Positions 1-33,074 of a stretch of DNA of 33,074 nucleotides are shown here, in pieces. Source of the stretch: a virus (taxonomy: Duplodnaviria > Heunggongvirae > Uroviricota > Caudoviricetes); IMG/VR virus record IMGVR_UViG_2737471830_000002; one strand, given 5' to 3'. Each line of letters opens with the position of its first letter. Positions within the stretch are counted from its first letter, which is position 1. Position numbers and translations under genes: made by a program. The notes under the pieces are model-generated. The model ran no database searches and was not told where the DNA came from. It worked only from the letters and a program-made list of their open reading frames with translations.

Positions 1-1209
1 TTACCCATCAATCACACCGGGTCTGAAATCAAATACATTTGCATCCCATATAGTAAGATGAAATCTACAGTGATTCATCACTCCGGGAGCATGTTCCATA
101 TGAACAATTTTACTCATTTGAGGATGAGGCTGCGATTTTAATCTTATTAGAATGTCTCCAATTCCAGATGATATATTACCTGAAGATGTTGGTAAGCTTG
201 TGTCGCGAAAATGATAGGTTGAGAACCATGAAGATAAGTTTAAATCTAGTGAAGATATAAAGTTTAACTTATTTGTACCAACACCAATGGCATGAGCAAC
301 AGTAAAACCTGTTGAAGATACATCTATTTCATTAAAAATCAAAACTTCTTCATCAATTGAATTGCAATCTATAGAAAAACCATATCCTTCATCCATAACA
401 GGAGATGTAGCAACCTCTTGTTTTACTGCTCCCTGGCGGTTAAAAACATAGAATGGACCAAATTTTGTCTTTTGAGTTAACCTGTCAAGATTTGCTGGCG
501 AGGTATAGTATTTTGTACCTCTAATTGTTAATGCAATACGTGTGTATCCTCCTCCAGGGATATCGACAGTTATCCTCATTCCGTTTCCGATGACATCAGT
601 AAGAACGTTTTTAAATATCAACCCATCTATGTTGCTGCGGATAATGAACTCTACATCAGGGCCAATGTGCAACCGTTCCAGCAGTGAGACATCTATATTA
701 TGTGGTCTAGTAATTAAATACTTCCCTGAATTTACTACAAAAGAACCGTCTTTAAGCATATCATCAAGATAATCACTACACGATATATTACCAGTATTAT
801 CAGCCCCGTAAGATTTTAGATCCCCCCCAATGTATTGATAACCGTATGGAGAATGAAGTTGTTCCTTTAGTTGATCAGGGTCATACTTCAGCACATTCGG
901 AAAATAGAACTGCTGAGAACCGTACGCATCATATACAGCCATAGAATGGCCTTGCACGGTAACGAATTTGGCAATCTGTCCGTTATATACAGGATATCCG
1001 GCAGCGTTAATGATGATTGGCTGTGCAACAGGAACGTGAGAGCCGTCTTCGTTCTCCACATAAACCTGAATCTGGTTTTCAGGATTTACCGGGTCAGTGT
1101 CAATTTTACCGATATAAATTTTGCCATTGGCTACGGCTTTAAAAGAACGCGCCATAGTGAAGAGTTGCGAAGGCATGCTTACCACAACATTTGCGGTGAT
1201 ATCTGACAT
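1..1209 (-). CDS. Tailspike protein, 402 aa, P22-type head-binding N-terminal domain with a divergent short C-terminal domain
   Basis: N-terminus [46 protein letters not shown] closely matches the P22/Sf6/HK620 tailspike N-terminal domain; ATG at 1209 preceded by GGAG; stop codon occupies 1..3. Confidence 0.8.
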
Positions 1210-1225
1210 TTCATTGCTCCAGACG

Positions 1226-1252
1226 AATGATGTGATGCAACCATGATGTGAT
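1226..1252. promoter_or_regulatory. Direct repeat ATGATGTGAT x2 plus ATGCAA/TTGCAT inverted repeat in the divergent tailspike-mnt intergenic region; candidate operator
   Basis: Repeats read directly at 1226..1236 and 1242..1252 between divergently oriented tailspike and mnt starts. Confidence 0.3.
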
Positions 1253-1330
1253 TGCATACCGAAATGGTACTATTGAGTATTTATCCAGTAGGTTACGATG
1301 CCATTCCACCCAACTGGTGAGGCATCAAGG

Positions 1331-24431: not shown

Positions 24432-24710
24432 TCAGGCCTCGAAGAATTCGCCGTTCTTCGGGGCTTTTTCTTTTGTCAGCATTCTGGCTACTTTCTTAGC
24501 CAGTTCCGCCAACTCCTCGTCTTCAACACCCCATTCAAGAACAGCCAGAAGCATTCCCATTTTTGGGATGAAGCTGTCTTTCCATCGCGAAATTTGCGAT
24601 TCATTAATCCCTAACGCGTCGGCAACCTTTCGCTGACCACGTACAGCAATTCGATTCAGGATGTTGCTTGTAATTGCATTCGCTTTCTTGCGAGTACTTG
24701 TAAGTTCCAT
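24432..24710 (-). CDS. CII-type transcriptional activator (P22 C1-like)
   Basis: MELTSTRKKANAITSNILNRIAVRGQRKVADALGINESQISRWK...LAVLEWGV matches the lambda CII / P22 C1 family; ATG at 24710 with AAGGA RBS. Confidence 0.75.
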   Translation of the reverse strand: MELTSTRKKANAITSNILNRIAVRGQRKVADALGINESQISRWKDSFIPKMGMLLAVLEWGVEDEELAELAKKVARMLTKEKAPKNGEFFEA

Positions 24711-24724
24711 ATGTAAGTATTTCC

Positions 24725-29016: not shown

Positions 29017-29523
29017 ATGGCAAGCAGAGGCGTAAATAAGGTGATTATCCTTGGTCGGGTAGGACAAGACCCGGAAGTTCGATACTCACCATCAGGAACA
29101 GCGTTCGCTAACCTGACAATAGCCACGTCAGAACAATGGCGAGATAAAAATACTGGCGAGCAAAAGGAATTGACTGAATGGCATCGTGTTGCTGTATCCG
29201 GGAAACTGGCTGAGGTCGTGGGGCAGTATGTGAAAAAAGGTGATCAGATTTATTTCGAGGGAATGCTGAGAACCAGAAAGTGGAAAGACCAGTCAGGGCA
29301 AGACCGTTACACAACCGAGGTTCATGTCGGAATTAATGGCGTGATGCAAATGCTTGGCGGCATTGGCGACAGCAAACAACAAGCAGCCAGCAAGCAATCA
29401 CAGAAGCCACAGCAGCAATCATCACCAGCACAACACAACGAACCTCCGATGGATTTTGACGACGATATACCCTTTGCACCAGTAACTCTCCCCTTCCCTC
29501 GTCACGCTATTCACGCAATTTAA
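29017..29523 (+). CDS. ssb: Single-stranded DNA-binding protein with C-terminal extension
   Basis: OB-fold N-terminus [44 protein letters not shown]...; acidic tip [11 protein letters not shown] is followed by [15 protein letters not shown] before the stop. Confidence 0.9.
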
Positions 29524-30008: not shown

Positions 30009-30775
30009 AACAAATGTCACTAATTGAGATGGATGGATTTCTGAAAGGTAAATGCATCCCACGAGATTTAAAGGTTAACGAAACAAACGCTGAATATCTT
30101 GTCCGTAAGTTCGGTGAACTTGAATCAAAACTCAACGAGCAGCGTGAGTATTACGAGGGCGTTATCTCGGATGGGAGTAAGCGTATTGCTGAACTGGAGA
30201 AAAGCGAAGAGCAACTCATCAACGAGCGTGACCATGCTGAGTATGCTTTAGCTGATATGTATTTTGCAGCAACCGGGAACAGGCCGGAATGGAGTAACTG
30301 TTTCAGTTTTTCAGATGCAGTAGATGCCGTAGTTGACAGAATTGCTGATTTAGAAGCTAAACAGCCATCGCCAGTAGTACCGGAAGAAAAACCAATGCCT
30401 AATCCTCTTAGCATGTACGCGGTTGATGCTGTTGCCGCTATTGCAGAGGTGAGAGGCTGGAATGCCTGCCGCGCCGCCATGCTTCATGGTGCCGAACCTG
30501 TAAGCCAAACTTACAAGTTGAACGAGCTATCTGGCAACTCTCCGGTAACTCCGGATAGTTGGATAAGCTGTAGTGAGCGAATGCCGGACGATAAACAGTA
30601 TGTTTGGTTTTTTGGGGAGTCTCGCGGATTTGCTGGACGCGATACCTTCGAAGGGTATTACGATTGGTCGAGAAACAAATGGTGGGCAGTAACTGACATT
30701 GGAGAAGAACCTGCATCAAAAGTAACCCACTGGATGCCGCTGCCAGAACCGCCGTGGGAGGTTAACCGTGGCTAA
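30005..30775 (+). CDS. DUF551-like prophage protein
   Basis: C-terminal region [18 protein letters not shown]...WWAV...[10 protein letters not shown] resembles the DUF551 signature common in enterobacterial prophages. Confidence 0.55.
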
Positions 30776-30875
30776 CCTGCAACTTGCCGTCAAAGGTGAA
30801 TAACAATCCTCGCACTCGCGGGGATTTCTTTTATCTGAACTCGTTACGGCGGGTTTTGTTTTATGGAGATGATAA

Positions 30876-31043
30876 ATGCACTTCCGAGTCACAGGTGAAT
30901 GGAATGGAGAACCATTCAACAGAGTTATCGAAGCAGAGAACATCAACGACTGCTATGACCACTGGATGATATGGGCGCAGATAGCACATGCAGACGTAAC
31001 CAATATTCGAATTGAAGAACTGAAAGAACACCAAGCCGCCTGA
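30876..31043 (+). CDS. Hypothetical small protein (55 aa)
   Basis: ATG at 30876 after GGAGATGATAA; a terminator hairpin overlaps its stop. Confidence 0.35.
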   Translation: MHFRVTGEWNGEPFNRVIEAENINDCYDHWMIWAQIAHADVTNIRIEELKEHQAA

Positions 31044-31056
31044 TGGCGGTTTTTTA
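31033..31056 (+). terminator. Intrinsic terminator
   Basis: AAGCCGCC-TGAT-GGCGGTTT followed by TTTTTATT. Confidence 0.5.
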
Positions 31057-31065
31057 TTGCCTGAT

Positions 31066-31082
31066 TTGCAGGTTCGATTCCC
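31066..31082 (+). other. tRNA T-arm-like fragment (TTGCAGGTTCGATTCC) upstream of the excisionase gene
   Basis: Matches the T-loop consensus GGTTCGATTCC and, as recalled, the argW T-arm, but is not part of a foldable full tRNA. Confidence 0.4.
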
Positions 31083-31100
31083 TATTCGGAGATAGCACTC

Positions 31101-31301
31101 ATGCAACACGAACTACAGCCTGATTCACTGGTTGATTTGAAATTCATCATGGCTGATACTGGCTTTGGTAAAACCTTCATCTACGACCGGATTAAGTCCG
31201 GCGACCTGCCAAAAGCCAAAGTTATCCACGGGCGAGCAAGATGGTTATATCGTGACCATTGTGAATTCAAAAATAAGCTCTTAAGCCGCGCTAATGGGTA
31301 A
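31101..31301 (+). CDS. torI: Excisionase / recombination directionality factor, AlpA/TorI family
   Basis: 66 aa, MQHELQPDSLVDLKFIMADTGFGKTFIYDRIKSGDLPKAKVIHGRARWLYRDHCEFKNKLL; winged-helix AlpA-type; matches E. coli TorI as recalled. Confidence 0.75.
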   Translation: MQHELQPDSLVDLKFIMADTGFGKTFIYDRIKSGDLPKAKVIHGRARWLYRDHCEFKNKLLSRANG

Positions 31302-31374
31302 AATAGCGGGTAAAATATTTTTCACATCTAAAAAATACCATTCCAATCAATCCCCTGCCGCTTCAAGTAGATGT

Positions 31375-31389
31375 CTGCAGGGGACACCA
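31375..31389 (+). other. Attachment-site core: tRNA 3'-end fragment CTGCAGGGGACACCA (likely argW-derived)
   Basis: Acceptor-stem 3' strand plus discriminator plus CCA with no upstream tRNA body; phage genes to the left, host-like sequence to the right. Confidence 0.55.
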
Positions 31390-31549
31390 GATACCCTTCA
31401 AACGAAATCTACCTTCACTCCGTAAAAGATGGGTTTGGCAGCATGCCCTATATCTACTCATTTTTACTGCAACAGGTTGAAATCTCAGCACTGTCAGAAA
31501 GCGTTGATGACTAAACAGCCCTGGGCCGGGCGATGTAACCATCACACAG

Positions 31550-31748
31550 AATCCTGATAGCGAAATATGGCGTGACTCGATACTTCACTCCGCAATGCAT
31601 TCCTTGATGAATTCGCATGCCCGTGATACACGGGACAGGTCGCTGAATGACGACAATGTCCTGGAAATCAGCGAACCGCGTATCCGGAGTACATTTGAGC
31701 GACTGTACCAGAACATGAATGAGGCGTTTGGATTAGGTGATTATTAGC
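31550..31748 (+). other. Open frame without convincing start; possible gene remnant in the host flank
   Basis: About 66 sense codons ending ...RLYQNMNEAFGLGDY then stop; not identified. Confidence 0.2.
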
Positions 31749-31826
31749 AGGGCTAAGCATTTTAGTATTATTATTTTCCGGTTGAGGGATATGGAGATAT
31801 CGACAACAACCGGAAAAAGTTTACGT

Positions 31827-33074
31827 CTATATTGCTGAAGGTACAGGCGTTTCCATCACTATTTGCTCGCGTTTTTTACTCAGGAAGAAAATGCCAAATA
31901 GCAACATCATGCAGACAATACCCGAAATTGCGAAGAAAACTGTCTGGTAGCCTGCGTGGTCAAAGAGTATCCCAGTCGGCGTTGAAAGCAGCACAATCCC
32001 AAGCGAACTGGCAATTTGAAAACCAATCAGAAAGATCGTCGACGACAGGCGCTTATCAAAGTTTGCCACGCTGTATTTGAAGACGGATATGACACAAAGT
32101 GGAACCTCAATGGCATGTAACAGCTTCACTAATGAAATAATCCAGGGGTTAACGAACAGCGCGCAGGAAAGGATACGCAACGCCATAATCACAACACCGA
32201 TAAGTAATGCATTTTTTGGCCCTACCCGATTCACAAAGAACGGAATAATCGCCATGCACAGCGCTTCGAGTACCACCTGGAATGAGTTGAGATAACCATA
32301 CAGGCGCGTTCCTACATCGTGTGATTCGAATAAACCTGCATAAAAGACAGGAAAAAGTTGTTGATCAAAAATGTTATAGAAAGACCACGTCCCAACAATA
32401 AATATGACGAAAACCCAGAAGTTTCGATCCTTGAAAACTGCGATAAAATCCTCTTTTTTTACCCCTCCCGCATCCGCCGCTACGCACTGGTGATCCTTAT
32501 CTTTAAAACACATGTTGATCATCATAAATACAGCGCCAAATAGCGAGACCAACCAGAAGTTGATATGGGGACTGATACTAAAAAATATGCCGGCAAAGAA
32601 CGCGCCAATAGCATAGCCAAAAGATCCCCAGGCGCGCGCTGTTCCATATTCGAAATGAAAATTTCGCGCCATTTTTTCGGTGAAGCTGTCAAGCAAACCG
32701 CATCCCGCCAGATACCCCAGGCCAAAAAAGAGCGCCCCCAGAATTAGACCTACAGAAAAATTGCTTTGCAGTAACGGTTCATAAACGTAAATCATAAACG
32801 GTCCGGTCAAGACCAGGATAAAACTCATACACCAGATGAGCGGTTTCTTCAGACCGAGTTTATCCTGAACGATGCCGTAGAACATCATAAATAGAATGCT
32901 GGTAAACTGGTTGACCGAATAAAGTGTACCTAATTCCGTCCCTGTCAACCCTAGATGTCCTTTCAGCCAAATAGCGTATAACGACCACCACAGCGACCAG
33001 GAAATAAAAAAGAGAAATGAGTAACTGGATGCAAAACGATAGTACGCATTTCTGAATGGAATATTCAGTGCCAT
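31827..33074 (-). CDS. cscB: LacY-family oligosaccharide:H+ symporter, probably sucrose permease CscB
   Basis: 415 aa, 12-TM MFS; aligns along its length with LacY; the start codon is the last three bases of the window. Confidence 0.8.
   Translation of the reverse strand: MALNIPFRNAYYRFASSYSFLFFISWSLWWSLYAIWLKGHLGLTGTELGTLYSVNQFTSILFMMFYGIVQDKLGLKKPLIWCMSFILVLTGPFMIYVYEPLLQSNFSVGLILGALFFGLGYLAGCGLLDSFTEKMARNFHFEYGTARAWGSFGYAIGAFFAGIFFSISPHINFWLVSLFGAVFMMINMCFKDKDHQCVAADAGGVKKEDFIAVFKDRNFWVFVIFIVGTWSFYNIFDQQLFPVFYAGLFESHDVGTRLYGYLNSFQVVLEALCMAIIPFFVNRVGPKNALLIGVVIMALRILSCALFVNPWIISLVKLLHAIEVPLCVISVFKYSVANFDKRLSSTIFLIGFQIASSLGIVLLSTPTGILFDHAGYQTVFFAISGIVCMMLLFGIFFLSKKREQIVMETPVPSAI

Follow-up and report, generated by a model that had tools for sequence, protein, structure and literature searches.

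The argW-type attachment region at the right end of a P22-like prophage and the tRNA-like box upstream of its excisionase gene torI

The phage DNA described here carries two short pieces of a tRNA gene near its right end, one on either side of a small excisionase gene. This raises the question which of the two marks the boundary between prophage and chromosome, and what the other one represents. A preliminary description had taken the downstream piece for a displaced argW 3' end at the prophage boundary and the upstream piece for either a relic of an earlier integration or a part of the attachment arm. All positions given below refer to the window, i.e., the whole stretch of 33,074 nt that was analyzed. 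Taken together, our results make it very likely that 31057-31389 represents the right end of a P22-like prophage with the argW module of KplE1, HK620 and Sf6, and that the upstream piece belongs to the phage, the box at this place being probably a cis element.

The prophage boundary and its recombination module

The annotated tRNA-Arg gene argW of E. coli EC187792, which comprises 75 nt, was used as reference. Alignment of both pieces with this gene, a check that had been proposed in the preliminary description, gave an exact match in either case. CTGCAGGGGACACCA, which occurs in the window as a single copy at 31375-31389 (+ strand), equals argW nt 61-75 in the same orientation and comprises the 3' strands of T stem and acceptor stem together with the CCA end. 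TTGCAGGTTCGATTCC, likewise present as a single copy (31066-31081, + strand), equals argW nt 46-61, again in the same orientation. For exact matches of 15 or 16 nt to any part of argW the chance expectation in 33 kb, both strands included, is approximately 10^-3 by our own arithmetic. With ARAGORN no tRNA gene was found in the window, so that both matches are fragments and not genes, and Rfam yielded no tRNA match within 30700-31850 even at E = 10. The features of the right end and the gene at the opposite edge of the window are the following:

1..1257, - strand: N-terminal part (head-binding domain) of a P22-type tailspike gene (Pfam Head_binding, E = 1e-67)
31101..31301, + strand: torI, excisionase (recombination directionality factor), by identity to known TorI
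31296-31303 and 31308-31315, + strand: two direct GGGTAAAA repeats, P arm of attR, matching the 'repeat_region attP' of HK620
31351..31358, + strand: TCCCCTGC, inverted copy of the core sequence GCAGGGGA, 18 nt left of the core, read from the sequence
31369..31374, + strand: GATGTC, putative phage-side core-type half-site left of the crossover region, from the consensus
31375..31389, + strand: attR core, displaced argW 3' end including CCA, by exact match to argW
31390..31826, no strand assigned: native chromosomal DNA downstream of argW, found directly after argW in prophage-free genomes
31827..33074, - strand: oligosaccharide permease of the LacY family (Pfam LacY_symp, E = 3e-193; TIGR00882)

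A chimera of the yfdC-argW region and window positions 31390-31750 matched 1,414 E. coli genomes, e.g., E24377A, without interruption, which identifies the DNA to the right of 31389 as the normal sequence downstream of argW. The exact match and the precise junction of the empty site thus bear out that 31375-31389 is a displaced argW 3' end marking the prophage boundary. The sugar permease that had been noted to the right of this boundary was recovered as well, as the LacY-family protein encoded at 31827-33074, and is presumably the sucrose permease CscB. Within 31595-31747, between attR and the permease gene, there is a short remnant at approximately 31599-31688 for which RefSeq entries of relatives give a partial DUF4942 pseudogene; it is probably left over from an older island at the argW hot spot.

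The assignment of the attR boundary is correct and already known for phages of the HK620/Sf6/KplE1 type. The block 31060-31392 is present, with torI annotated, in 1,405 of 5,426 complete E. coli genomes. The boundary as such adds nothing new, as about a quarter of these genomes contain the block and annotations of it exist for K-12, HK620 and Sf6.

The recombination module is common to KplE1, HK620, Sf6 and CUS-3 and contains a 16-nt core, CTGCAGGGGACACCAT; intS is located at attL beside argW, and torI at attR. Several elements of this module were found in the window. The core CTGCAGGGGACACCA(T) of KplE1, HK620 and Sf6 is matched exactly over 15 nt, the sequence at 31375-31389 being identical to the 'attP core' of HK620, to pawZ of K-12 and, except for the missing final T, to the 16-nt core published for KplE1. 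Moreover, the P-arm repeat GGGTAAAA occurs twice between torI and the core. A core of argW type was detected in all 36 genomic loci and in all phage relatives examined. The ORF at 31101-31301 (66 codons) encodes a protein which is 100% identical to TorI of K-12, HkaC of HK620, gp18 of Sf6 and PDB entry 1Z4H. The excisionase that had been placed at the right end is therefore TorI, and its gene sits immediately inside attR, with 73 nt between the end of torI and the core.

In vitro, IntS, TorI and IHF recombine a 220-bp attL with a 135-bp attR to yield attP and attB, as described for KplE1 and HK620 substrates. Mapping of the published primers placed the GGGTAAAA repeats inside this functional 135-bp attR. 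The repeats, replaced by GGGCATAA in other lineages, are conserved at the P-arm position and, judged by sequence and position, are probably the arm-type sites of IntS. In the free phage the order is xis (torI)-attP-int. Integration into the 3' end of argW brings IntS to the left end beside a rebuilt argW, and TorI, the P arm and the displaced original argW 3' end (31375-31389) to the right end. For excision, this core would recombine with the identical sequence that ends argW, a step that would need IntS, TorI and IHF. The same excision mechanism as in KplE1 and HK620 is expected here.

A comparison of 63 distinct att sequences showed that the left half-site follows the consensus G-R-T-G-T-C/A, which is invariant or nearly so. 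Together with GACACC the left half-site forms an imperfect dyad across TGCAGGG, and for this reason TGCAGGG was taken as the likely crossover region. The sequence TCCCCTGC (31351-31358), an exact inverted repeat of GCAGGGGA (31377-31384), is kept in every lineage compared, including the most distant ones.

For the integrase, a position at the far end of the prophage, beyond the tailspike and outside the window, had been predicted, in a split arrangement like that of TorI and IntS. A search with IntS by tblastn detected no integrase in the window. The tailspike gene is cut by the left window edge, and its head-binding domain is encoded within 4-1257 (- strand). In relatives, the gene at the left end is annotated as tailspike or head-binding protein, and further to the left lie intS, in part together with gtr genes, and argW. 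The best relatives of the source genome are approximately 97-99% identical. In two collinear relatives the region beyond the tailspike could be inspected: one continues directly with intS and argW, and in the other a gtr cluster is followed by intS. The integrase is seen there beside an intact argW, at the place predicted, and the arrangement corresponds to the known IntS/TorI layout.

Some of the loci retrieved from IMG/VR differ from this pattern. Downstream of the core, six contigs (L142, L149, L184, L212, L216 and L218) continue not with host DNA but with an arm and an integrase that belong to another element, the arm repeats being of the GCGTATAAC, GGTATAAG or GGGTAAAA type. They resemble tandem arrays in which different elements have the argW core in common. 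Two metagenome-assembled genomes labeled Actinomycetes and Parachlamydiaceae (L020 and L036) contain enterobacterial TorI-type modules of 85-92% identity on short contigs, which most likely result from binning contamination.

Identity and origin of the upstream fragment

The region upstream of torI contains the following features:

30876..31043, + strand: 55-aa ORF, final early-left gene ahead of the recombination module, with homology to the lambda segment beside xis
31033..31058, + strand: terminator-like intrinsic hairpin with T run, from a terminator scan, also present in HK620, Sf6 and CUS-3
31057..31069, + strand: TTGC-N5-TTGC, according to the HK620 and Sf6 records the CII-binding site of a predicted 'phage integration' promoter
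31066..31081, + strand: 16-nt match to argW (5' strand of the T stem and T loop), exact over argW nt 46-61
31072..31082, + strand: conserved box GTTCGATTCCC, left edge of the xis-attP-int module, from the alignment of lineages

Around the 55-aa ORF the DNA is approximately 96% identical to lambda 29091-29361, and this homology ends at about 31069. The box lies 5 nt upstream of the Shine-Dalgarno sequence GGAG of torI (31088-31091). For the T-arm 16-mer no match was found in the searchable literature.

While the upstream fragment proved to be a genuine piece of the argW T arm, exact over nt 46-61 as noted above, neither of the two origins suggested for it could be upheld. The fragment is located at the same place in virion DNA of HK620 and Sf6 and in KplE1 of K-12. 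Its presence in virion genomes implies that it arrived with the phage and was not left behind in this chromosome, which speaks against a relic of an earlier integration. Nor is it a part of the attR that suffices for excision in vitro: the left primer of the published 135-bp attR corresponds to window positions 31278-31297, so that the fragment ends 197 nt to the left of the attR start, and many relatives with the same core lack it.

The GenBank record of CUS-3 (CP000711) implies a different boundary. CUS-3 has the same module and the same right-end sequence up to 31081, and its record marks TTGCAGGTTCGATTCC as the core of attL and attR and ends there, leaving out torI and the real core. If this T-arm fragment were the true crossover core, the prophage described here would end at 31081, and the 16 nt do indeed repeat the T arm of argW in direct orientation. 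However, the last 908 nt of CUS-3 recur in UTI89 with 100% identity, and torI and the 3'-end core come directly after them. The virion DNA of HK620 and Sf6 also contains torI, placed between the fragment and the annotated attP core. Furthermore, the empty site joins argW to 31390 and not to 31082, and in attL of CUS-3 the 16-nt 'core' is followed by the rest of argW and then by an int arm of HK620 type. A crossover within the T-arm fragment is thus extremely improbable. In UTI89 (L007 2700-2716) the true core, CTGCAGGGACACCAT, is one G short. This loss could impair excision, and it may be the reason why the inner repeat was chosen over the true core in the CUS-3 record. As this reference record illustrates, the 16-nt T-arm repeat can mislead the calling of prophage boundaries.

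The two fragments overlap by one base and would together rebuild argW nt 46-75. We therefore considered them as halves of a longer tRNA copy in attP into which torI had been inserted, but this was rejected: in many lineages the phage half-site beside the core still reads TTCGATGTA, i.e., a decayed T loop is in place. The upstream box accordingly represents an additional copy, and it is by coincidence that the fragments of the E. coli lineage overlap by one base.

According to the annotations of HK620 and Sf6, the T-arm fragment would be part of a CII-activated promoter of pI type, from which integrase is made without excisionase. Both records place a predicted pI promoter at this position, and the window encodes a lambda-type CII (24432-24713, - strand; Pfam Phage_CII, E = 1e-42). 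The first TTGC is homologous to the pI box of lambda, and the lambda homology stops there. Going by the geometry of lambda pI, transcription would presumably start between the ribosome binding site (RBS) and the ATG of torI. Several findings argue against such a promoter: the TTGC elements are spaced by 5 nt (31057-31069) instead of the canonical 6 nt, the box would occupy the promoter spacer, which is normally not conserved, the TTGC pair is absent where the box has other left contexts, and no sigma-70-like hexamer pair was detected. That the fragment belongs to a pI-type promoter is hence unlikely, and the 5-nt spacing of the sole CII-like box before torI casts doubt on the pI annotation of HK620 and Sf6 itself. 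A sigma-70 promoter at the box was likewise rejected, as no sigma-70-like hexamer pair appeared in the promoter scan.

Conservation and possible role of the box

When IMG/VR was scanned with the family alignment only loci with 100% identical TorI were obtained, and the scan was repeated with two distant excisionases. In an unanchored MAFFT alignment of 13 diverse lineages, no block upstream of the start codon was invariant except GTTCGATTCC. The box was present in 70 of 98 distinct upstream contexts, and 61 of these 70 share a C after GATTCC which is absent from argW. Upstream of the excisionase RBS, (A/C)(A/G)GTTCGATTCCC occurs in Erwinia phage Midgardsormr38, the Salmonella phages Emek and g341c, and Erwinia phage phiEt88, the excisionases of which are 88%, 49%, 48% and 36% identical to TorI, respectively. 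GTTCGATTCC(C) remains invariant approximately 5 nt upstream of the RBS in lineages with an excisionase of 36-50% identity. The box was also found in genomic loci of Serratia, Citrobacter, Pantoea, Edwardsiella, Enterobacter and Phytobacter and in many IMG/VR contigs. In Midgardsormr38 (L008 1956-1984) two tandem copies of CAGGTTCGATTCCC precede the excisionase gene, 16 nt apart.

Both the 5-nt linker to the RBS and the left flank vary between lineages around a constant box. Its left neighbors are of at least two unrelated kinds, namely a lambda-type terminator with TTGCCTG and the first 21 codons of a P22-type xis. The constancy of the box beside unrelated left neighbors indicates that it is the first conserved element of the xis-attP-int module. 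The ORFs ypdJ of K-12 (L006 795-935) and an ORF of Emek (L011 1901-1963) consist of the first approximately 21 codons of P22-type xis and are cut about 12 nt before the box. This truncated xis reveals a mosaic joint, at which a xis-int module of P22 type has given way to the argW module.

With respect to the origin of the box, the match to argW extends differently among lineages, covering nt 46-61 in E. coli, nt 49-63 in Serratia (L021) and nt 51-63 in Pantoea (L024). Based on these sequences, a derivation of the box from argW is likely, since a conserved 10-mer that equals part of the module's own target tRNA is improbable by chance.

The box could, on the other hand, be a neutral scar, i.e., an argW segment without function that the phage lineage picked up through aberrant recombination, in one event or in several. 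Many relatives have the same core, arms and excisionase without the box, from which follows that it is not needed for recombination, and some of these relatives resemble the product of a clean deletion of approximately 24 nt (TTGCCTG-GAGAT vs TTGCCTGG-CTTCCAGGTTCGATTCCCAAACC-GGAGAT). Besides this dispensability, the argW match is extended in different directions by different lineages, and single variants within the E. coli population are about as numerous in the box as in its flanks. In contrast, ten positions are invariant in 13 lineages despite diverged linker, spacer and left flank and an excisionase of down to 36% identity. Repeated capture would also have to account for the C after GATTCC, which most copies (61/70) share and argW lacks; this points to a single origin followed by conservation. 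The deep conservation favors a function of the box, whereas its dispensability and the ordinary variation in E. coli leave room for neutrality. All in all, a functionless scar is conceivable, if on the unlikely side.

As the box is conserved even where the excisionase has diverged to 36-50% identity, we regard it as probably a constrained cis element acting on excisionase expression. RNAalifold predicted no conserved pairs at the box in the 13 lineages, and with Rfam only sub-threshold chance matches were obtained for this region.

One candidate for the factor acting at the box is TorI itself, which would bind GTTCG before its own gene and thereby repress itself. The published TorI sites are 8-mers around GTTCG, GATCG or GTCCG, and TorI is known to act as a repressor of intS through such sites. 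GTTCG is part of the box, and the Erwinia phage with two copies 16 nt apart fits this picture. However, in phiEt88 and in the IMG/VR phage contigs L199, L205 and L206 the recognition helix has changed from KTFIY to KYFY and the P'-arm repeats at the positions of TorI sites are now of ATTACC and GTTAC types, but the box still reads GTTCGATTCCC. In addition, its conserved part reaches well past GTTCG. Because the box stays unchanged where the excisionase sites change, the operator was rejected as a candidate; we consider it very unlikely.

Another candidate is the integrase. The box is a second copy of the T-loop region of argW including GATTCC, which by our placement of the crossover would be the chromosomal left half-site. 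As a best guess, it would be recognized by the core-binding domain of the integrase, given that it copies the left half-site of attB and stays constant where the neighboring arm and excisionase sites have changed. Two points count against this view: a half-site on its own offers only a weak target to a tyrosine recombinase, and the box always has the chromosomal form GATTCC instead of the GATGTC of the phage working half-site. The more specific proposal, that GTTCGATTCC(C) is a working copy of the argW left half-site through which the integrase or another factor reading the T loop sets the amount of excisionase, is offered tentatively and with low confidence. If it were true, it would add an undescribed layer of directionality control in the widespread family of argW phages.

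What is left beyond the known boundary is modest: a tRNA-like 11-mer before the excisionase gene which is conserved across phages of Enterobacterales and for which no description was found in the searchable literature. torI is reportedly kept silent by Rho-dependent termination upstream. Its promoter has been termed 'non-characterized' in the literature. Considering that this promoter is uncharacterized and that TorI synthesis is the switch for excision, the box is an inexpensive and specific target for mutagenesis.

Comparison with known attachment modules

KplE1 (CPS-53) of E. coli K-12 is one of the closest counterparts. It possesses the same 15-nt argW fragment, labeled there as pseudogene pawZ for the copy of the argW 3' end, an identical TorI, the same P arm and the same T-arm fragment upstream of torI. 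KplE1 is, however, a remnant of 10 kb located beside dsdC, whereas the prophage described here is a full-length P22-like genome beside a sucrose-type permease. The base following the core is T in K-12 and G in the window, so that the identity of the cores extends over 15 and not 16 nt.

In HK620 and Sf6, the region from the terminator through the T-arm fragment, hkaC or gp18, respectively, and the attP core is 97-98% identical to the window, with the same order xis-attP-int. Both are free phage genomes, in which the core is followed by the int arm, while here it is followed by chromosomal DNA. The AlpA-type relatives of Pseudomonas have a different gene layout.

The system also resembles that of lambda in that a tyrosine integrase acts together with a small winged-helix excisionase and IHF on arm-type and core-type sites, and the genes preceding xis are homologous in the two systems. 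The attP of lambda, however, is located beyond int, and int and xis are found together at one end of the prophage. In the argW module attP is located between xis and int, which places the two genes at opposite prophage ends.
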